A DNA stretch of 64,000 bases from contig JAVYWK010000008.1 in NCBI GenBank assembly GCA_038727095.1, positions 8,136 to 72,135 on the forward strand, given 5' to 3'. The stretch comes from Thermofilaceae archaeon (GTDB taxonomy: Archaea > Thermoproteota > Thermoprotei > Thermofilales > Thermofilaceae). The stretch's first letter is position 1. Every line of letters starts with the position of its first letter. This document shows positions 34,935 through 45,492 of this stretch, one piece after another. Made by a program: the position numbers and the translations under genes. The notes beneath the pieces are model-generated. The model was not told where the DNA came from. It saw only the letters and a program-made list of their open reading frames with translations, and did not search any database.

Positions 34935-35065
34935 GCGGCGAGCTCAGGTTCGTGGAGCTTTCAGACGAAGAGGTTGATCAACTGATCCTGCAGAGGCTGC
35001 GAGAGATCAAGGAGCTGCTCAAGGAATTGAGGGACGTGCTGAAGAAGGCGAGCGAGTATGGCTGA
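34931..35065 (+). CDS. Small coiled-coil protein (44 aa)
   Basis: MSGELRFVELSDEEVDQLILQRLREIKELLKELRDVLKKASEYG; GTGA overlap upstream and overlap with next ATG. Confidence 0.7.
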   Translation: MSGELRFVELSDEEVDQLILQRLREIKELLKELRDVLKKASEYG

Positions 35066-35732
35066 GCTCTTCGACCTGTACGAGAGAGCACTGAGGACTA
35101 GCAAGGTTAGAGGTGGATCAGTGAGGATCAGCGGTGCTGGCCGAGTCAGCGGCGGTACCTACGAGAGCGTGACCATCAGCGGCTCTGCGACCGTTGATGG
35201 AGATGTCGAAGCTGAAACCGTTAGGGTTGCCGGCTCAACCTCTTTCCGCGGCAGCGTAAGGGCAGGCGAGATCTCTATTTCCGGCTCCGCGAAGGTGGAA
35301 GGAAGCGTGAAAGGGGAGCTTCTAAAAGCGAGTGGCTCACTGTCCGTAAAGGATGTCATCGAGTGCGAGGAAGCTTGGGCTGCGGGATCGCTGAGGGCAC
35401 GATCCTTAAAGGGCAAGATCGTTCGGCTAGCGGGGGCTTTTAAAATCGAGGATGAGTTAGACGCTCAGCTCGTGGAGCTCAAGCTGTCAAACGACTCAAG
35501 CTGCCGCGCCCTCAGAGGGGAGGAGGTGAGCATCGAGCGCTCTGGGGGCACTTTCCGGATGTTCCTCAGGTTCACCCGCAGGCATCCCACCTTGAAGGTG
35601 GAGCTCCTCGAGTCGAAACTAGTTAGAGCCAGGGACGTTGTGATCGAGGGACGAATCAAGGCGGATAGAGTTGAACTATACGGTGAAGCTGCAGTAGTGG
35701 GAGTCGTCGAAGGAGAAGTCGTTAAGCTCTAG
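35058..35732 (+). CDS. Bactofilin-like (polymer-forming cytoskeletal, YhbE/F-like) beta-helix protein
   Basis: Repeating V.ISGS..V.G.V.A units (ISGAG, ISGSA, VAGST, ISGSA, ASGSL, AAGSL, LAGAF). Confidence 0.7.
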   Translation: MAELFDLYERALRTSKVRGGSVRISGAGRVSGGTYESVTISGSATVDGDVEAETVRVAGSTSFRGSVRAGEISISGSAKVEGSVKGELLKASGSLSVKDVIECEEAWAAGSLRARSLKGKIVRLAGAFKIEDELDAQLVELKLSNDSSCRALRGEEVSIERSGGTFRMFLRFTRRHPTLKVELLESKLVRARDVVIEGRIKADRVELYGEAAVVGVVEGEVVKL

Positions 35733-36826: not shown

Positions 36827-38704
36827 CTACTGTACTTTTCCGGGGGCGTGGGCTAGCCTAACCCACACTTGCATAGGCCCGGGCTCGCGGTTAGCCCAAG
36901 CGTAGTACGGTACCGCTGTGAACTCCACCTCCCTAGCCCGCTCTTCCACCTCGCCGAGGCGCGCGTAGAGCCTCTTCTCCCAGCCGCCGGCGTCTAGGGC
37001 TAGCGCCCTACCCCTAACCACTGCCACGCCTCCAAGAAGGTCTGGGCGCCACTCCACTTTCATCTCGCCCGGTACCAGGGCTAGGTTCCAGACATCGTGG
37101 CTGTTGTCGGCCTGCTCCAAGCAGTAGACGAGGGGGCCGTACTTTACGGCGCACCTGCACGTGTTGTAGGTGACCCATGGGTGGCTTACGAGGAGGTACG
37201 GACCCATCTCGAATCTAAGCGCAACCCTATCGCCCTCCCTCCACCTCCTCTTCACCTCAAGGAAGGTGCCCGGCCGCACTGGCTCCAATCTCTCCCCGTT
37301 CACCTCGACTTTAGCTACACGAGTCCAGCCCGGGATTCTCACGAAGAGGGAGAACTCGTCGATGCCCCGCGGCTTCACCTCAATATCGACCTGCCCATCC
37401 CACGGGTAGTTGGTGCGCTCGATCAGTTCCACAGATCCTCCGTCAAGCTCGATCGTGGCTCTGCTGGCTGCGTAAAGCACCGTGTAGATGCCCATCCGCG
37501 TCTTCGCGTAGAGCATCCCCGGGACGTAGGCGATCAGCCTGGCGATGTTCGGCGGGCAGCAGGCGCACTCGAACCACCTCTGCCTCCGGTGCCTCCCCCT
37601 ATCCGCGAGCGGGTTAACGTAGAAGTACAGGTCCCCACTGAGCGAGATGCCGGCGAGCGCACCGTTGTAGAGGGCCAGCTCCATTACGTCTGCGAACCGA
37701 GCTTCGCCCGTCGCTAGCAGCATCCTCCAGTTCCACATCACGTTGGCAACGGCGGCGCACGTCTCCGCGTAGGCCCTCTCGTTGGGGAGCTCGTAGGCTT
37801 CGCCTATCGCCTCACCCTCGTACCTCGACCCCACGCCGCCGGTCACGTACATCTTCCTCGTGACGAGGTCCTCCCAGAGGAGCTCCAGCGCTCTGAGCAG
37901 GTCAACATCGCCGTTCTCCATGTAGACGTCAGTAGCGCCGCAGCAGAGGTACAGCGCTCGCACAGCGTGCCCTGTGATCTCGGTCATCTGCTTGAACGGC
38001 ACGTGATCCAGGTGGTAGGGGCTCCCCCCGATCAGCCCCCTCCCCCTCCTCTCGATGAGGAGCTGGGCCAGCTCGAGGTACCTGCGCTCCCCCACTTCCC
38101 TGTAGAGCTCGACGAGCGCCATCTCGACCTCCGGGTGCCCGTCGACAGCCTCCCGTTTGCCGGGGCCGAAGACCTCGTAAATGTGGTCGGCGGACCTGAC
38201 GGCAGCGTCGAGAAGGTCCTCTTCACCCGTGGTTCTGCTCCTCGCGACCGCCGCTTGGAAAAGGTGGCCGGCGCAGTACATCTCGTGCAAGTCGCGCAGG
38301 TTCGTCCACCTCTCCCCCTTCCTCTCAAAGGTGAAGAAGGTGTTCAGGTAGCCGTCCTCATCCTGCGCCGCGATTATCTCGGCTACAGCGCGATCCACCA
38401 ACCCCTTCAACCGGGCGTCATGCTCGTAAGCTAGGGCCCACTGAGCCGCTTCCACCCACTTGTAGACGTCCGAGTCGTTGAAGACGAGCCCCCTGAAAGG
38501 CTCTTTGATCTTACCGGCTGCGCGCCTGAAGTTATCGATGCGCCCCGTTTCCTCCAGCAGCTCGTACTGCGACGGCAGCGTCGCATCGATCAGCTTTCTG
38601 AGGCGTGGAGCCCAGAAGCCGTCCATCAGCCTGACGCGCCCAAGCGGGACTGGTTCCAACTTGGCGTACGGGCTCTTCGAGGTGTCAATTACGAGTTGCT
38701 GCAC
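36827..38704 (-). CDS. Glycoside hydrolase family 127 (beta-L-arabinofuranosidase-like)
   Basis: DSDVYKW, HEMYCAGH, GHPE, GHAVRA, YAETCAA, CACCPPN, PYYAWANR; start set at GTG 38704. Confidence 0.92.
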   Translation of the reverse strand: MQQLVIDTSKSPYAKLEPVPLGRVRLMDGFWAPRLRKLIDATLPSQYELLEETGRIDNFRRAAGKIKEPFRGLVFNDSDVYKWVEAAQWALAYEHDARLKGLVDRAVAEIIAAQDEDGYLNTFFTFERKGERWTNLRDLHEMYCAGHLFQAAVARSRTTGEEDLLDAAVRSADHIYEVFGPGKREAVDGHPEVEMALVELYREVGERRYLELAQLLIERRGRGLIGGSPYHLDHVPFKQMTEITGHAVRALYLCCGATDVYMENGDVDLLRALELLWEDLVTRKMYVTGGVGSRYEGEAIGEAYELPNERAYAETCAAVANVMWNWRMLLATGEARFADVMELALYNGALAGISLSGDLYFYVNPLADRGRHRRQRWFECACCPPNIARLIAYVPGMLYAKTRMGIYTVLYAASRATIELDGGSVELIERTNYPWDGQVDIEVKPRGIDEFSLFVRIPGWTRVAKVEVNGERLEPVRPGTFLEVKRRWREGDRVALRFEMGPYLLVSHPWVTYNTCRCAVKYGPLVYCLEQADNSHDVWNLALVPGEMKVEWRPDLLGGVAVVRGRALALDAGGWEKRLYARLGEVEERAREVEFTAVPYYAWANREPGPMQVWVRLAHAPGKVQ

Positions 38705-38795
38705 GCAGCTTCGATGATTGCCCGCTGAAATCTTTTTCCTAATCTTTTTAACTATAGAGCGTAAGGCTAAAAAGTGTAGTGAGAGGCACGGACTT

Positions 38796-39554
38796 GTGAG
38801 CGAGCTGGAGGGGGGAGAGAAGCTATTGGAGGAGGCCAGGAGCGCCATAAGACAGTTCGGCGACTTGCAGTACGAGCTGAGGGATTACGAGAAGCGGAGG
38901 AGCGAGGTGCTCCGCATGTACTCGACGGGGCAGGTTTCCAGGGAGGTTTTCGAGAACCTCATGGGCGAGCTCAAGCAGAAGATGCTCCCCCTCGTGAAGA
39001 GGTACTTCGAGCTGAAGTGGAGGCTGAGGGAGCTCGAATCGCAGCTACGGCTTGTGGTGACCAGGCTCAGCGTCGAAGCTAGGGCTTCGGAGAGTTCCCC
39101 GTACAGAGCCAGTTTCGAGAGGGATCAGCGCTTGAGAGCTACGCTCTCCAGGGTGGGTAGCACGTTGGAGGACGTCCAGCAGACCCTGAAGAACGTTGAT
39201 GCTGAAAGAGAGTTGAGGATGCTGGATGTCCTTCTCGATGTCCTCCCGAGGGAGGAGGTTGAAGCGTGGAGGCAGGTGATCGGTGAAGTGCTGGAGGGAT
39301 GGTCTCGCACGCGATTCTCCTACGCCAGCAGAGTTGAGGAGCTGGAGAGGAAGTTGGAGTCACTCAAGGATGCTTTAAGGGAGCTCGAGATAAGATTCGC
39401 CGTGGGGGAGTACGAGAGGGGGGAGTACGAGCTGAGGCGCTCAGCGGCCGAGAGGGAAGCGGGTGAGGTGCAGGCTCAACTTGAGGAGCTTCAGGAGAGA
39501 TTGGAGGACCTCGACCTTATCGCAGCTAGGTGCAGGGAGTTTCTGGCTAGGTGA
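38796..39554 (+). CDS. Coiled-coil protein with two CdvA/SHOCT-like motifs
   Basis: All helical, MYSTGQVSREVFENL and RFAVGEYERGEYELRR; start set at GTG 38796. Confidence 0.65.
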   Translation: MSELEGGEKLLEEARSAIRQFGDLQYELRDYEKRRSEVLRMYSTGQVSREVFENLMGELKQKMLPLVKRYFELKWRLRELESQLRLVVTRLSVEARASESSPYRASFERDQRLRATLSRVGSTLEDVQQTLKNVDAERELRMLDVLLDVLPREEVEAWRQVIGEVLEGWSRTRFSYASRVEELERKLESLKDALRELEIRFAVGEYERGEYELRRSAAEREAGEVQAQLEELQERLEDLDLIAARCREFLAR

Positions 39555-42232
39555 GGCTGATGGTTGCCCAGAGAAGGTTCATACTCACCGTGCTCCCGCT
39601 GCTCCTCGCTGTCGCGCTGGCTGGAGCAAGGGGTCAGGGGGTCAGAGAGGTGAGGGTGTTCAACCCGCTCCCCTACCCCCGCAGCGAGATCATAAGGTTG
39701 AACCTCAATTTCCTGGAAGGTGAAGCTTACAATGGGACGCTCAGCATCCGGGATTCCTCGGGCAACCCAATCCCCCTCCAGCTGGTTAACTGCACCTTCT
39801 ACCCTTCCGGGCACTACAAGAGCTGCTCCCTCCTATTTCGGGCTGATCTACCACCCTTGAACGTAACTCGGTACTTCATTACGTACTACTCGGCCCCGCC
39901 CGGGTACAACGTTAGCGTCCATGGGGGGTTGAGCGTCCGTTCCGCTAACCTGACCCTCGTTGCTTTCAATGCTACGGGCTCCTACGCCATCAATGTGACT
40001 AAAGCCATTATGGTCAGAGGGCCCGGTTACACAGTCATATTCAGCAACTCGTCTCTCGTTAACTTCCTCTTCGATGACGTGGGCGGCAACCTCGTCTTTG
40101 TCGACTGGCCGCTGGCGGGTTTCGTGGTTATGAGGAACCTAACGATCGCGGCTAGCGGCTACGATTTGAAGGAGTGCCAGGTTAAGCTGCTACTCAACGG
40201 GACGCTCGAGGCGAAGGTCGAGCAGGTTTGCCGCCATGGTGGGTTCGAGCTCAGTCAGGTGTTTACGTTCAGCGGTTTATCGGCCTTCGTACGCGTCGAC
40301 GCGCGGCTAAAGGGGGTGGAGGAAGGGCTCCTCTTCTTCCCCTTCCTGAGGCTCGCCGCCTCTGATTTTCGCGAGGCAATAATCAACGCGACCAGCGTTA
40401 GTGTAAGCCGAGAGCGGAGCTACGTTCCTGCCCCCCGCTGGCTGGCGCTGAGGGGTGGAAGAGGGTGGTTAGTTGTAGCTGTTAACTACACAAGTGTTGA
40501 CCCGAGGTCCGTGCTGGAGGCGCAGAGGCTCACTCTCTTCAGGAGGTACGTTAACGAGACGCACCCGCTGCAGAAGGCGCTTTACGAGCGTTTACTGAAG
40601 ATCCACGGAAACCTCACGAGAGTTCTAACAGCTGGTCAGCTTGCAGAAGCGGGAAGGCTAAACCTCACGCAAACATTGAGAGAAGCTGACTACCTCGCGG
40701 CTTTCAGTTCTGAGAGGGACCTCCTCCTTAAGAACCTGACAGACTTACTCGAGGCGACTGAGAGAGTGGCTAGCAGGCTCCTATTCATGCCTCAAGAGGG
40801 GGCTCTCAACATAGCGTACCAGGTAGGGAGGAGGGAAGCTAGCATCAATGCAACAATCGTTCTGGCGGTAGTCACAGAAAGCCCCCGCGATCTCGTTAGG
40901 TTCTCCCTCTTGAGCGCGGTCGCTACACCGGCCGTACTCTACGCCCCTATTGAGGCCCGACTCGACGCGCCAACCACCGTCTACGTTGACGATTACCTCC
41001 CAGTTAGCGCCGTCGTAAGATCAGCGGAGGGCCTGCGCAACGTCAGCGTCAGGCTAGTGCTCCCGGAGCATGCATTCGCGGTTGTAGAGGGCAGGAAAAG
41101 CGTTAACTTCACGCTCCTGCAGGGCACGCAGAGGGTTGATTGGACTCTGAGAGCGATGTACGAAGGCAGCTGGCCCATTCTCCTCAACGTGTCAAGCCCG
41201 TGGGGTAGCCTCATCCTTGAGAGAACCATCAACGTTTCGCTACTGCCCATCGTACCACGCGTCATCATCCCCAGAGCATTCAACGCGACGATCATTTGCA
41301 TCGATGCGCAGGGTAGACCCCTCTCGGGTTACCTGGTTAACCTCTACGAGAACGCTACTCGCGTGTTGGTACGCTGGGGGTTCACGAACGAGAGCGGCCT
41401 GCTGCGCTTCACAAACGTCACCGCCGGCGTGTACCGCATTGAGGTCACAGATGGTTTCCACAGCACATGGAGCACCGTCTACATCTACTCTGACAGAAAC
41501 TTCACCGTGAGCGTAGGCTTGTCCAACTTGAGGGTCAGGGTCGAGCTGGCCGAGGGGCGTCCTCTACCCCAAGCGGCTGTCTACGTTCGAGATGAGGAGG
41601 GCAGCCTCGTCTGCGCGGGCTTCACAGATGCTAACGGCACGGTGCTGTGCACCGGTCTTCCTCGCGGCAACTATACGGTATCCCTGCGGTGGCAAGGGGC
41701 GCTCGCCGGCTCCACACGCGTTTCCCTAACTAACGATACCCAGGTTGTGCTAAGGGGGCTCGTGAGGCTTGTGACAGTCTACGTCTCGCTAGGCGGAAGC
41801 CCAGCGGCTGGCGCCGTCGTAGCCGCGTTCTCGCCTGGAGGGACCCTAATTGCTACTACATACACAGATGAAAGAGGGATAGCCCAGTTGTACCTGCTCC
41901 CCGGCCCCTACCGGTTCACCGCTACAAAGGGCCAGTACAGTTCAAGCGTAACTGCCGACGTCAGGGTCGGCGGGTACGTAGAGCTAAACCTGACGCTTTC
42001 ACCAAGCCTCTGGCTGCTAATCGCAGTAACCGCCGCGTTGTGGTCGGTCACAGCTTACGTATGGCACCGGAGGACAAGTTACGTGTACAGGGAGAGGGAG
42101 CGGTACAAGCGCCTCCTTCAGCGGCTCGAGGAGCTTTACGGTAGAGGGGAGGTTGAGGAGAGGTTCTACGTGAAGCTTAAACAGGAGTACGAGACGAAAC
42201 TAAACGAGCTGAGCCGAGGTGAGTGGGAGTGA
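39551..42232 (+). CDS. Membrane-anchored surface protein with three carboxypeptidase-regulatory-like repeats and SHOCT-like tail
   Basis: Signal peptide, about 30 N-x-S/T sequons, three G.P..(A)V...T(D/N)..G...G.Y repeats, TM helix, LEELYGRGEVEERFY. Confidence 0.75.
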   Translation: MRLMVAQRRFILTVLPLLLAVALAGARGQGVREVRVFNPLPYPRSEIIRLNLNFLEGEAYNGTLSIRDSSGNPIPLQLVNCTFYPSGHYKSCSLLFRADLPPLNVTRYFITYYSAPPGYNVSVHGGLSVRSANLTLVAFNATGSYAINVTKAIMVRGPGYTVIFSNSSLVNFLFDDVGGNLVFVDWPLAGFVVMRNLTIAASGYDLKECQVKLLLNGTLEAKVEQVCRHGGFELSQVFTFSGLSAFVRVDARLKGVEEGLLFFPFLRLAASDFREAIINATSVSVSRERSYVPAPRWLALRGGRGWLVVAVNYTSVDPRSVLEAQRLTLFRRYVNETHPLQKALYERLLKIHGNLTRVLTAGQLAEAGRLNLTQTLREADYLAAFSSERDLLLKNLTDLLEATERVASRLLFMPQEGALNIAYQVGRREASINATIVLAVVTESPRDLVRFSLLSAVATPAVLYAPIEARLDAPTTVYVDDYLPVSAVVRSAEGLRNVSVRLVLPEHAFAVVEGRKSVNFTLLQGTQRVDWTLRAMYEGSWPILLNVSSPWGSLILERTINVSLLPIVPRVIIPRAFNATIICIDAQGRPLSGYLVNLYENATRVLVRWGFTNESGLLRFTNVTAGVYRIEVTDGFHSTWSTVYIYSDRNFTVSVGLSNLRVRVELAEGRPLPQAAVYVRDEEGSLVCAGFTDANGTVLCTGLPRGNYTVSLRWQGALAGSTRVSLTNDTQVVLRGLVRLVTVYVSLGGSPAAGAVVAAFSPGGTLIATTYTDERGIAQLYLLPGPYRFTATKGQYSSSVTADVRVGGYVELNLTLSPSLWLLIAVTAALWSVTAYVWHRRTSYVYRERERYKRLLQRLEELYGRGEVEERFYVKLKQEYETKLNELSRGEWE

Positions 42233-45200
42233 GGCGGGCAACAAGCTACGCGGTATTCGCCCTCCTATCGCTACTTGCATCGGTAGGCATAGCGGTCGCT
42301 ACACCCGAAAGCCAGCTCATAGTCATAGTTCGCGAGTACCCCAGCGGGAGGCCTCTGGGGGGCGTATCCCTCAACGTTACGCTGTGGATTGGGGGGAGGA
42401 CTCTGACATTTAACGCGCTGACAAACCCCGTCGGGATGTGGAACATACAGCTAGACCTGAAGCCGCAGGAGGCCTACCTGGTTAGGCTCTCAGTAGCACC
42501 CGCGAACTTCACAGGCTTCTCCTCCCCGCAACCCGCCCTACCCGTGCGCGTGGCTGATACGATGATCGACGAAATAGACTACAGAGCAGCCTTCATACCC
42601 TCTGCCAACGTAACAGAGCTCTCAGAGCTCAGGATCCCCCTCCAGGTTACCCAGAGCGGCAATGTTAGCCTAGTGAGGTGCGCAATCTGGATCGCTCCAG
42701 CGAGATTCGTTAACGTCAGCGTTCTAGACCCGGTAACCCGAAGGCCGACGAGAGTAACCGTGAAGCCGGGAGCCCCTCTCGTTGCGAGAGGCTACCTTCA
42801 GCCGTACCTCCTCCCGATAGGCTACCCTGTGCTGGTTAGGGCTGACACCCCCCTGACGGAGGCTCGGCAGCTGAGGTTCTGGGTGACCAATGAGACTCGC
42901 CTCGTGCCATGGTCGTACTACGCTGCTGATGCATTCCTGAAAGGGCAGCTGGCCTCCATTGACGATACGCTAAGGCAGTTAGAGGCGATCGGCTATCCGA
43001 CTGAAGAGTTTAGGAGGGGGGCGAGCCTGTTAAGGGCTGTTGCATGGCAGGCTTTGATCTACTTTGAGCGGGGCAATTACACGACGGCTATCGGAGCTCT
43101 CCTGGGGCTCGTCAACGGAGTTAACTCGCTGCGCAGTAGAGTGGACAACCTTTTCAGCTACTCACAGTTAGCCGCTGTTGGGGTTATCCTGCTCACCCTA
43201 GCATTCACCCACGTCTTGTCAGCAATGCTCTTTGAGAGGCGAAGGCATCTCTTCGTGACTCGGTTAGCCTTGTTGGTGGCGCTCATCCTGTTCGCGCTGT
43301 ACACGTCGCCGACGATGAGGGTCGCCGCAGCCGGACTCCTCGGGACACTGGGGGTACCCATGGCGGCGCTGGATTACCCCACGCTGGTTGCCGGAACCCT
43401 TCTCCTAAGCTTCCTAGCTTACAGCCTGCTCGTGCTCTTCTCAGCCGTTTCCGGTCCCGTGAGGGGCTTCTGGCTGCAGATAGCGCTCAGGTACATGAAG
43501 TCCAAGCGCCTAAGAACTGTGCTGGTTCTCACGGCCATGACCTTAGTCGTATCCTCGGTGCTCGCGGTCTCCGGCGTCACTATAGGTTCCGCAGTGATGG
43601 TGAAGAGCGGCCGGGGCTCTGGCTTCTACGGCCTCGACGTAGAGGTTGATACGATTCGCCGACCCACGGGCATGAACTTGTCGGAAGTTGAATGGCTCAG
43701 AGCGCTGGTTAACGCCACTGCAGTAGGCCGCATGGCCACCCCGCCTCCAAACTACCTGGGCGTGCTTGTGATGACTCGCGCCTCCGAAGCAATGATCTTA
43801 ACCCAGATGGCCGCCATCGATATCACCTTCGCAGCACGATACTTCAACCTGACAGCCGCTCTCTACGACGGGAGGCTTCCTCGAGATGGCGCGGCCGAGA
43901 TCCTCCTGCCGAAGGGCTTCTCAACTTCACTAAGCATAGGCGACAGCGTGTGGCTTTTCTTCGCCCAGCCGAGCGCACAGGGCCCACCCTCGCCGGCGGG
44001 CCCCGTATGGGACACGCCCGTACGAGTGGTGGGCTTCTTCGATCCGCTCGTCCTCAACGGGACGTTGGACCCGGAGCTGAGGCCGCTCTTCGGTGATCTT
44101 GCGCGAGTAAACTTCCTCGTAATAGCACCCTTCGATCCTCTAGCGCGCAGGTTAGCCCTCTCGCGAGTCTGGCTGCTTACAGCAAATGCCACGCCCGCTG
44201 GAGATGCGGCTCAACTTGTATTCACTGCGCTCCCCGTTACAGTGCACGTGCTCGAGGGCGACCGCGTCACCACCTACGAGAGGACGCTCCAGCTGTCGTT
44301 CAGGGGGCAAGAGTCGTTAGTGCTCCTAGTCATAGCAGCCTTGATGAACGCTATGGTGATGCTCGGCCACGTAGAGGACAGGAGGAGGGACGTTTACACA
44401 ATGGCAACGCTGGGCGCCGACCCTAAGAACCTATTCAACGCGATGATCGTCGAGGCTTCAATCATAGGTATCGTGGCCTCCTACCTCGGTTGGCTCCTTG
44501 CCCCTGTGATAAACCTGGTGCCCTCATCCTTCACCTTCCTCTTCGGCGGGGCGCCGATCGCGATCTCGCCGCCGCCGGTTGAAAGCCTGTTCTACGCGGC
44601 GGGGCTTGGGCTAGCCACGTCCGTGCTCTCGGCTTACGTGCCGTCGAGGAGGGCGAGCGGCCTCTCCAGGATGGGTAGGGAGGAGAGGAAGGTGATCTCG
44701 CCCAGCGAGCTCAAGCTGGTGGGTGGAATGGCGATATACGAGCTGCCGGTTAGGGTCTCGGTCTTCGAGAGCGAGGCGCTGTACAGGTACTTGAAGGAGA
44801 TCCTTCCGAAGAAGGACATCCTGGGGGAGGAGGTTTACCTGGATGGAACCTTCGCGATCTCCTTCGCCATCCTACCGCCGCACATGAGGGGTACTCTCGT
44901 CACTTGCAGGCTCCGAACGGTTAAGCGCGGCGACAGCCTGATCCTGCAGCTCGAGGTCCCGGAGGAGTACAGGAGCTACATCTACCTGAGCGACGTGATC
45001 TACGCGCTCGAGACGAAGCTGCTCGACTACTCCAAGTGGAGGGACACGCAGTTCAGGTACCAGATTCTGAGGTACGCGCCGCGACGCGAAGTACTGACGC
45101 TGGACGCCCTCCTCGAGCGGAGCTCGAACGTCATGGCTAGAGCCAGGGAGCTGGAGCTGAAGTTGAGGAGGCTCGACGAGATGAAGGCCACGATATCCAC

Positions 45201-45492
45201 GAGCTTGTACACCGAGTACGAGAGGAAGTACAGGAGGGAGCTCAACATACTCATCCGGGAGCTCCTCACGCTCTCGCTAAGGCTCGAGCCATTCGTGAGC
45301 CAGCTGCGCGATGAGATGCGCAAGCTCGAGTCCGAAAGGGAGAAGCACAGGGTCGCATACGAGCTGGGCGAGCTAAGCGAGGCGGAGTACAAGGCCGCTG
45401 TTGAACCGATAGAGAAGCAGCTCGACGAGTACGCGAGCAGGCTCAAGATGATAGAGGAGGTAAACTCCTTCCTGGCGTCGAGGCGCAGGTAG
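42223..45492 (+). CDS. FtsX/MacB-like permease with C-terminal CdvA-like coiled coil
   Basis: ALRYMKSKRLRTVLVL, VEDRRRDVYTMATLGA, VEASIIG, YVPSRRAS; tail AYELGELSEAEYK. Confidence 0.75.
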   Translation: MGVRRATSYAVFALLSLLASVGIAVATPESQLIVIVREYPSGRPLGGVSLNVTLWIGGRTLTFNALTNPVGMWNIQLDLKPQEAYLVRLSVAPANFTGFSSPQPALPVRVADTMIDEIDYRAAFIPSANVTELSELRIPLQVTQSGNVSLVRCAIWIAPARFVNVSVLDPVTRRPTRVTVKPGAPLVARGYLQPYLLPIGYPVLVRADTPLTEARQLRFWVTNETRLVPWSYYAADAFLKGQLASIDDTLRQLEAIGYPTEEFRRGASLLRAVAWQALIYFERGNYTTAIGALLGLVNGVNSLRSRVDNLFSYSQLAAVGVILLTLAFTHVLSAMLFERRRHLFVTRLALLVALILFALYTSPTMRVAAAGLLGTLGVPMAALDYPTLVAGTLLLSFLAYSLLVLFSAVSGPVRGFWLQIALRYMKSKRLRTVLVLTAMTLVVSSVLAVSGVTIGSAVMVKSGRGSGFYGLDVEVDTIRRPTGMNLSEVEWLRALVNATAVGRMATPPPNYLGVLVMTRASEAMILTQMAAIDITFAARYFNLTAALYDGRLPRDGAAEILLPKGFSTSLSIGDSVWLFFAQPSAQGPPSPAGPVWDTPVRVVGFFDPLVLNGTLDPELRPLFGDLARVNFLVIAPFDPLARRLALSRVWLLTANATPAGDAAQLVFTALPVTVHVLEGDRVTTYERTLQLSFRGQESLVLLVIAALMNAMVMLGHVEDRRRDVYTMATLGADPKNLFNAMIVEASIIGIVASYLGWLLAPVINLVPSSFTFLFGGAPIAISPPPVESLFYAAGLGLATSVLSAYVPSRRASGLSRMGREERKVISPSELKLVGGMAIYELPVRVSVFESEALYRYLKEILPKKDILGEEVYLDGTFAISFAILPPHMRGTLVTCRLRTVKRGDSLILQLEVPEEYRSYIYLSDVIYALETKLLDYSKWRDTQFRYQILRYAPRREVLTLDALLERSSNVMARARELELKLRRLDEMKATISTSLYTEYERKYRRELNILIRELLTLSLRLEPFVSQLRDEMRKLESEREKHRVAYELGELSEAEYKAAVEPIEKQLDEYASRLKMIEEVNSFLASRRR

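Follow-up and report, generated by a model that had tools for sequence, protein, structure and literature searches.

A three-gene operon of a Thermofilaceae archaeon with a CdvA-type coiled coil on an FtsX/MacB-type membrane protein

To our knowledge, CdvA is so far the only protein for which a role of its coiled coil has been studied, namely the formation of a filament that templates ESCRT-III rings. Among permeases of the FtsX type, bacterial FtsEX is part of the divisome, EnvC and PcsB are its extracytoplasmic clients, and docking of the ATPase is expected at the cytoplasmic end of the permease. Here, we describe an operon of uncultured thermophilic archaea in which these two kinds of protein meet. 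In a stretch of 64,000 nucleotides from a Thermofilaceae archaeon (GenBank assembly GCA_038727095.1, contig JAVYWK010000008.1, positions 8,136 to 72,135; hereafter "the window"), positions 38796-45492 hold three + strand genes with overlapping ends, the open reading frames ORF1, ORF2, and ORF3, and the last of these encodes an FtsX/MacB-type protein that ends in a CdvA-type coiled coil. We propose that the three genes encode one membrane-spanning assembly that organises the cell surface or envelope, a proposal that we regard as evenly balanced between right and wrong.

According to the available part of PMC12818579, CdvA filaments form via the coiled coil: the coiled-coil domains of S. islandicus CdvA join head to tail through A90, L94, I100, I149, M153, and I156, and mutating these interface residues abolishes filaments. 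CdvA-like coils outside canonical CdvA, as used by the proteins described here, are also reported in the accessible portions of PMC11188069 and PMC5906684, which list arCOG03733/03734 of Thermoproteales as well as FHA-CdvA-like and Cren7-CdvA-like fusions. Unlike the present system, those proteins are soluble and, in these portions, not described together with an FtsX protein or a surface glycoprotein. ORF1 further differs from the arCOG03733/03734 pair in having neither a zinc ribbon nor a Cys-rich N-terminus, in having membrane proteins as neighbours, and in its different locus.

The CdvA-type coil of ORF3 and its relatives in ORF1 and ORF2

The CdvA-type fold of the ORF3 tail is established by profile and structure comparisons. 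An AlphaFold2 (AF2) model of residues 822-1089 (predicted local distance difference test, pLDDT, 84.7) consists of an alpha/beta domain followed by three helices, whose connecting turns (model positions 166-171 and 227-231) are the sites of two conserved motifs. When ORF3 tails were aligned with 12 PRC-barrel CdvA-type proteins of the same class using hhalign, the match scored 62 (probability 96.3%, E 1.6e-9, 120 columns), as compared with 29-31 for reversed controls that keep composition and heptads and 9-14 for column shuffles. Among 48,161 representative chains of the PDB, the solved S. islandicus CdvA (9s9g_A) ranked first for the tail model with Z 13.6 and a root mean square deviation of 3.6 A over 128 residues (CdvA 68-197), the next chain reaching Z 9.9; rescoring of Foldseek candidates gave Z 13.7 for 9s9g_C and Z 13.4 for 9s9i_A. 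Foldseek itself returned nothing at E<=0.001 for this model and placed CdvA at rank 22, and the best PDB sequence-profile match was CdvA, weakly (E 0.025). The likeness to CdvA (PF18822; 9s9g/9s9h/9s9i; PMC12818579) thus comprises a three-helix coil with equivalent turns at Z 13.6-13.7 and 18% identity.

Family models place the tail close to their thresholds. PF18822 matches nearly the full length of the tail with 22.2 bits in the whole protein, 26.0 bits in the tail, and 27.0 bits in the genome search, under a cut-off of 30 bits that 2 ORF3 orthologues pass (30.4 bits in genome G012; 30.3 bits, with neighbours, in G001); at E<=1e-5, this profile matched in one of 14 control genomes, that of Sulfolobus. 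The NCBIfam CdvA model NF041007 gave 11.5 bits to ORF3 against a cut-off of 350. Unlike CdvA, neither ORF1 nor ORF3 matches a PRC barrel at E<=1; it is absent from ORF1, and its place in ORF3 is taken by a membrane protein and the small alpha/beta domain. CdvA further differs by its ESCRT-III partner, for which the genome search returned no gene, and by its E3B tail, of which no counterpart was identified. The best fold matches of the alpha/beta domain are tied (DUF4468, Z 8.0; AMPK C-terminal domain, 7.9; Chk1 KA1, 7.8; adaptin appendage, 7.5), and the model weakly matches a KA1/TBP-like arrangement.

ORF1 has no transmembrane (TM) segment by hydropathy, and its AF2 model (pLDDT 91, predicted template modelling score 0.79) shows six helices (residues 3-43, 49-100, 107-132, 136-147, 152-202, and 208-251); residues 44-48 and 203-207 form tight turns and are the sites of its two motifs. 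Whole ORF1 aligned with the same 12 CdvA-type proteins at 92.5% (score 52; reversed controls 23-24). The two hairpins of CdvA are matched separately, the first by the N-terminal half of ORF1 (89.4%, score 44) and the second by the C-terminal half (94.7%, score 52); the reversed control for the halves, made with the N-half, scored 24, and reversed whole ORF1 23-24. PF18822 gave 20.5 bits (E 5e-4), under its 30-bit gathering cut-off, and the comparison of the two halves with each other gave no signal of an internal repeat (about 4% in hhalign). ORF1 is probably a stretched CdvA-type coiled coil, composed of two long hairpins plus a helical insertion. The tail of ORF2 matches the first CdvA hairpin only (26%, score 25; reversed 11-13) and aligns with motif 1 of ORF1 at 57% (score 30; reversed 12.6) and with the ORF3 tail at 2%.

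The initial annotation had described one helix-Gly-turn-helix motif, resembling CdvA and SHOCT domains, on the predicted cytoplasmic side of all three proteins. All five motifs that it quoted, two in ORF1, one in ORF2, and two in ORF3, are indeed present, those of ORF1 and ORF3 at turns between long helices of the AF2 models. Their positions are invariant or near-invariant columns among 11-12 orthologues of 18-99% identity and persist in eight distant loci from other classes, and conservation peaks at the hairpin tips in ORF1, the ORF2 tail, and the ORF3 tail alike. The cytoplasmic placement also agrees with the distribution of N-X-S/T sequons, which lie in the predicted ectodomains of ORF2 and ORF3 and are lacking in both tails and in ORF1 (zero sequons). 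The motifs are similar to each other without being the same, since a hidden Markov model (HMM) of the ORF2 tail retrieved neither ORF1 nor ORF3 from the genome at E<=10, but five other proteins. The proposed kinship with CdvA is strong for the ORF3 tail in both fold and profile, reasonable for ORF1, and weak for the ORF2 tail. SHOCT and SHOCT-like bi-helical domains (PF09851), as far as the consulted part of PMC11237479 describes them, resemble the motifs in being short helix-turn-helix elements that have a Gly-acidic turn and belong to the cytoplasmic face of membrane proteins; the suggested relationship found no backing in the searches, as PF09851 did not match whole ORF1-3 at E<=1 or the tails and ORF1 halves at E<=10.

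An FtsX/MacB-type protein without a neighbouring ATPase and a glycoprotein with a constant tail

ORF3 runs from a hydrophobic N-terminal segment through ectodomain 1, a block of four TM segments, ectodomain 2, and the FtsX domain into its 268-residue cytoplasmic tail (Table 1). It holds 12 N-X-S/T sequons (3.3 expected), all of them in the predicted ectodomains. As in the FtsX/MacB/LolCE type VII permeases, the FtsX domain is present and a large extracytoplasmic domain precedes the last three TM segments; this sequon-bearing segment of 246 residues sits in the place of the MacB periplasmic domain, yet it has no match to the MacB_PCD profile or to any other Pfam family at E<=10. Neither have ectodomain 1, the first membrane block, and the alpha/beta domain at this threshold. 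Residues 273-868 and, separately, 234-475 align to paralogues in related genomes, which suggests from sequence that ORF3 is an internally duplicated permease; its membrane block would then probably be the remnant of a first FtsX repeat, which Pfam does not call, together with TM1 of the second. These signs of duplication recall the "orphan duplicated permeases" (TIGR03434, ADOP), to which the match is weak (30.5 bits).

ORF3 differs from the FtsX/MacB/LolCE permeases in three further respects: its cytoplasmic C-terminal extension carries a CdvA-type coil, it is partnered by a coiled-coil protein and by a glycoprotein that bears a tail, and no ATPase gene is nearby. No ABC (ATP-binding cassette) ATPase was found among 336 ORFs across 20 loci (within about 5 kb) when two ABC ATPases of the same genome served as queries, which as a control had matched 48 ORFs in their own genome; the ABC_tran matches nearest to ORF3 are on other contigs. 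Genome-wide, there are 53 ABC_tran and 13 FtsX matches, and only 2 of the 13, both in small genes, stand beside an ABC ATPase. The remaining 11, including ORF3, have no adjoining ABC ATPase (the nearest one lies at a distance of 8-14 kb, or the contig contains none); most of these ATPase-less FtsX proteins are 975-1802 aa long (e.g., C12:12777, C10:12336, C10:61972, and C8:6858, the last just upstream of the window).

ORF2 combines a signal-like N-terminus and a head of about 550 aa with three immunoglobulin (Ig)-like repeats, a single TM segment, and a 56-aa cytoplasmic tail. Its 30 N-X-S/T sequons compare with 5.3 expected from composition; 29 lie in the ectodomain and one at the outer edge of the membrane segment. 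The tail is the best-conserved part of the protein (mean column identity 76%, 16 invariant columns), and stalk, TM segment, and tail form the constant core of the family, in that HMM positions 575-889 were matched in all seven distant orthologues. Orthologues range from 460 to 1559 aa, with the head lost or doubled and the tail conserved, also in other classes. The head is absent from the 460-463-aa orthologues of one family (L049 8068-9450, L053 7867-9258) and doubled in the 1557-1559-aa orthologues of another (L048 6889-11568, L054 4835-9508). A protein atlas offered for the head unnamed bacterial clusters (0.89-0.90) and faint PcRGLX leads, which were not usable.

Table 1. Features of the operon in window coordinates.
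Feature	Position	Strand	Description
ORF1	38796-39554	+	GTG start, 252 aa, all-helical soluble protein
ORF1 motif 1	38910-38960	+	residues 39-55, first hairpin tip; G45 invariant
ORF1 motif 2	39384-39440	+	residues 197-215, second hairpin tip; E196, R200, G204, E205, R215 invariant
ORF2	39551-42232	+	GTG start, 893 aa, predicted type-I surface glycoprotein
ORF2 head	39626-41275	+	residues 26-575; no family found (Pfam)
ORF2 stalk	41276-41974	+	three CarboxypepD_reg/Ig-like repeats (PF13620, E 5.6e-24)
ORF2 TM segment	41984-42058	+	hydropathy
ORF2 tail	42062-42229	+	residues 838-893, predicted cytoplasmic
ORF2 tail motif	42125-42190	+	residues 859-880
ORF3	42223-45492	+	GTG start, 1089 aa, FtsX/MacB-type membrane protein
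ORF3 ectodomain 1	42304-43149	+	residues 28-309, 7 sequons; no Pfam family
ORF3 membrane block	43150-43575	+	4 predicted TM segments
ORF3 ectodomain 2	43576-44313	+	residues 452-697, 5 sequons; MacB periplasmic domain position; no Pfam family
ORF3 FtsX domain	44314-44664	+	residues 698-814; PF02687 43.5-49.5 bits, cut-off 25.5
ORF3 alpha/beta domain	44686-45075	+	residues 822-951; AF2 strands and helices, pLDDT about 80-89
ORF3 CdvA-type three-helix coiled-coil domain	45085-45489	+	residues 955-1089
ORF3 motif 1	45172-45231	+	residues 984-1003
ORF3 LEP kink	45271-45294	+	conserved, between motifs 1 and 2
ORF3 motif 2	45349-45402	+	residues 1043-1060

Distribution of the operon and of its coil

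The gene arrangement expected from the initial annotation, three overlapping and co-oriented genes, was confirmed, with overlaps of 4 nt (ORF1/ORF2) and 10 nt (ORF2/ORF3), and so was the conserved co-occurrence that its proposed synteny survey asked about. Full-length orthologues of ORF1, ORF2, and ORF3 occur in the identical 12 of 41 related genomes, where they are neighbours in an unchanged order (a contig boundary interrupts the cluster of genome G004). These 12 genomes come from four families of the order, the flanking genes change in the distant ones, and the identity to the window falls in step from 98 to 18% for ORF1, 95 to 25% for ORF2, and 97 to 28% for ORF3. A profile of the cytoplasmic part of ORF3, run on a sample of 401 genomes from across the phylum, matched in 29, which cluster in a few families. 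Among eight distant loci, screened by greedily chosen ORFs of >=90 aa, six hold ORF1-ORF2-ORF3, one ORF2-ORF3, and one ORF3 alone, again with different flanking genes. The module was found in none of eight genomes of the sister genus, five of which are single-contig and 99% complete. In one distant family (L047 9084-12701, L051 10054-13653), the ORF3 orthologue carries a four-cysteine zinc ribbon after the CdvA-type coil; at L051, no ORF1 or ORF2 was found beside ORF3, and a second FtsX paralogue stands tail to tail with it.

In the window, the operon is flanked on the opposite strand by unrelated housekeeping and sugar genes, namely YbjQ and a GH127 arabinofuranosidase upstream and carA and carB downstream; as previously stated, no PRC barrel, ESCRT-III, or ATPase gene adjoins it. 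Near-identical proteins are publicly named "hypothetical protein" or "FtsX-like permease family protein [Thermofilaceae archaeon]", and sequencing runs that contain the operon stretch are labelled as hot-spring metagenomes. In one metatranscriptomic library, contigs of 90-99% identity span 30 of 30 bins (38700-45398) and all three genes; the depth drops to 0.7 in the last bin, past the ORF3 stop, and the uncovered part proves nothing. As these runs consist of contigs only, from which transcript ends, strand, and levels cannot be read, and DNA carry-over is possible, the coverage is consistent with transcription without proving it. At 38740-38795, two A/T-rich boxes recognised by eye precede the GTG at 38796, TTTTTAAC by about 53 nt and CTAAAAAG by about 28 nt; judging from their sequence, they could be a candidate archaeal TATA element for a transcript with a short leader or none. 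A 224-aa bactofilin homologue (35058-35732, +; PF04519, 35.2 bits, cut-off 27.9) is encoded some 3 kb ahead of the operon, and the closest relative keeps it in the corresponding position (L021 1333-2007).

The CdvA-type coil is a widely reused module, in agreement with the portions of PMC11188069 and PMC5906684 at hand. A profile of the ORF3 tail run against 1.84 billion representative proteins gave 96 matches at E<=1e-3, the best being 17 of 1038-1179 aa plus fragments. Pfam found on 39 further matches FtsX (4), FHA (5), zinc ribbons (6), PF18822 (7, of which 2 above cut-off), SHOCT, a glycosyltransferase, and a large surface protein (1 each), and nothing on 13. Several carriers of the hairpin are encoded in the genome of the window itself (G000). 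An apparent operon on contig C4 (50784-62138, -) encodes an FtsX permease of 390 aa, an ABC ATPase of 240 aa, and a 721-aa surface protein whose C-terminal tail shows the same CdvA-hairpin-like motif, and thus forms a second link between FtsX and a surface protein with this tail motif, here with an ATPase; the run also includes two TM+FHA-like proteins and a Ser/Thr-kinase-like protein (FHA and kinase by eye). Elsewhere on C4 (70857-72265) are a stand-alone copy of the hairpin of 65 aa and a protein of 167 aa that bears the motif N-terminally and TM segments C-terminally. On contig C44 (6686-9043, -), a 785-aa repeat-rich surface protein with a TM segment has a tail that aligns at 93% to the ORF2 tail and at 91% to CdvA hairpin 1 in hhalign.

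Two further loci bear on cell division. On contig C1 (90329-91249, +), a protein with a PRC barrel (27.9 bits) and a coiled coil aligned with CdvA-type proteins at 94.8% over 142 columns in hhalign (PF18822, 11.8 bits) and is probably the genome's diverged CdvA orthologue; the genome has three PRC matches, on contigs C40 and C1. On contig C7 (22073-23238, +), an overlapping gene pair has as its products a Cys-rich protein of 262 aa, which contains two tail-type motifs, and a coiled-coil protein of 126 aa, to which the C-terminal half of ORF1 aligns at 90%. This pair resembles families proposed as parts of Thermoproteales division in the accessible text of PMC11188069 and is possibly, as a candidate, the arCOG03733/03734 pair described there for Thermoproteales. 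In the 92%-complete genome, tubulin/FtsZ had no match; the suggested search for cdvB likewise gave no ESCRT-III/Snf7 hit (PF03357, E<=0.01), with a sensitivity limited by the fact that the Sulfolobus control itself scored only below cut-off. Because the genome has its own PRC-barrel CdvA-like gene and the C7 pair and because the distribution of the module is patchy, the module is an accessory envelope trait and not the missing division machine. Of a general role in division, among the functions offered by the initial annotation, there is no sign, given the separate PRC-barrel CdvA-like gene and the failure to find the module in the sister genus.

Proposed assembly and alternatives

In the assembly that we propose, ORF3 would be an ATPase-less FtsX/MacB-type protein with two glycosylated ectodomains outside and the alpha/beta domain plus a complete CdvA-type coil in the cytoplasm, ORF1 a free cytoplasmic, stretched version of the same coil, and ORF2 a heavily N-glycosylated single-pass surface protein whose tail would form the first CdvA hairpin only. 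ORF1 and the two tails may bind one another tip to tip and so build a submembrane scaffold, as suggested by the fact that CdvA coils join head to tail beside their tips and that the tips are the conserved motifs. This scaffold might hold ORF2 and ORF3 together or cluster them, and ORF3 could then pass shape changes across the membrane or act as a plain anchor. The role would likely be the organisation of cell surface or envelope as an accessory trait. In the HMM alignment with the ORF3 tail, CdvA shows the same letters at the six interface numbers as given in the available part of PMC12818579, and these residues closely flank turn 1 on both sides and immediately precede turn 2, i.e., at the places of the motifs. 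Among 20 ORF3-family tails, three of the six positions are conserved as hydrophobic (M/I/V/L, I/V/L, and V/L/I), so that the geometry is kept and the interface of the CdvA homopolymer half kept.

Several results weigh against this proposal. The other three interface positions are R/K/T, E/Q/D, and E/K/N in the same 20 tails, and a CdvA-like homopolymer is therefore not implied. The likeness of the ORF2 tail to the first CdvA hairpin is short and weak in sequence (26-57% hhalign probability), reversed coiled-coil controls still score 23-31, meaning that coiled coils inflate profile scores, and in a wide fold search with ORF1, CdvA came at rank 19 with Z 10.0, behind a top Z of 11.2 and among many helical proteins of Z 10-11. 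The tail-type hairpin occurs on at least five further proteins of the genome and is thus not private to the operon. The head of ORF2 and both ectodomains of ORF3 are without a family or usable lead. A complex prediction of the cytoplasmic part of ORF3 with the ORF2 tail and ORF1 reached a median of 0.49, as compared with 0.63 for a control in which ORF3 was replaced, and counts neither for the proposal nor against it. Mutual binding, any polymer, and the physiological role are what we infer from the signals described above.

The same data can be read in other ways. The proteins might constitute a type VII ABC machine of the MacB or FtsEX kind with an unlinked ATPase, in which ORF1 and the coil tail would have a regulatory or adaptor function and the client outside the cytoplasm would be ORF2. 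The FtsX domain, which scores above its cut-off, speaks for such a machine, as does the C4 locus, which unites an ABC ATPase with FtsX and with a surface protein whose tail shows this type of hairpin; an ATPase acting on ORF3 could come from any of the 53 ABC_tran matches of the genome (two adjoin small FtsX genes), which also counts against our proposal. However, the absence of an ATPase within about 5 kb holds for 20 loci of several classes, 11 of the 13 FtsX matches of the genome share it, and at the end where an ATPase would be expected to dock, the C-terminus of ORF3 runs straight into the alpha/beta domain and coil; we therefore consider this machine unlikely. Still less credit can be given to three neighbours with separate jobs, for which the hairpin would merely be a generic membrane-proximal or self-association tag without mutual contacts. 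Such a tag would fit the occurrence of the hairpin on unlinked proteins, the matches of the ORF3-tail profile to FHA, zinc-ribbon, glycosyltransferase, and surface proteins, and the prediction of SHOCT-like domains as inner-leaflet anchors in the consulted part of PMC11237479, but it is hard to square with strict co-occurrence, fixed order, and overlapping frames amid changing flanks across classes, or with an ORF2 tail that is far better conserved than the ectodomain.

A CdvA-type, ESCRT-independent scaffold for cytokinesis or constriction, with ORF1 polymerising at mid-cell and tied to the envelope via ORF2 and ORF3, appears to us the least credible reading, and we rate it highly unlikely. 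CdvA-type domains in all three proteins, the lack of tubulin/FtsZ and Snf7 matches in the 92%-complete genome, the formation of CdvA filaments via the coiled coil (PMC12818579, as far as available), and the place of bacterial FtsEX in the divisome would all suit it. Yet 29 of 41 relatives, all eight genomes of the sister genus among them, gave no match to the module, and a phylum-wide sample of 401 genomes gave only 29; a PRC-barrel CdvA-like gene on C1 and the zinc-ribbon CdvA-related pair on C7 exist in the genome besides the module; and the ORF3 tails retain only half of the CdvA polymer interface. The strongest form of the proposed envelope-organising assembly, in which ORF1 would be an ESCRT-III-free CdvA-type polymer bolted tip to tip to an ATPase-less FtsX-type mechanotransmitter and a surface glycoprotein, seems to us improbable to about the same degree as the three separate jobs.

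No description of the module was found in full-text literature, although the supplements of PMC11188069, which lay outside this search, might list such families. What is novel here is that a CdvA-type domain is fused to an FtsX/MacB-class protein, with both other operon products sharing it, in a genome in which ESCRT-III and FtsZ were not found. If ORF1 were indeed a polymer bolted to ORF2 and ORF3, it would be a new link between an archaeal cytoskeleton and the envelope, able to reshape or partition the envelope without FtsZ or ESCRT-III, and the CdvA coil would be an ancient modular element of membrane scaffolds that is not specific to division. If the three proteins assemble at all, they would provide a testable example of how a CdvA-type scaffold is anchored to the membrane and the cell surface, as well as a hint to the purpose of the many ATPase-less giant FtsX proteins of Thermoproteota.

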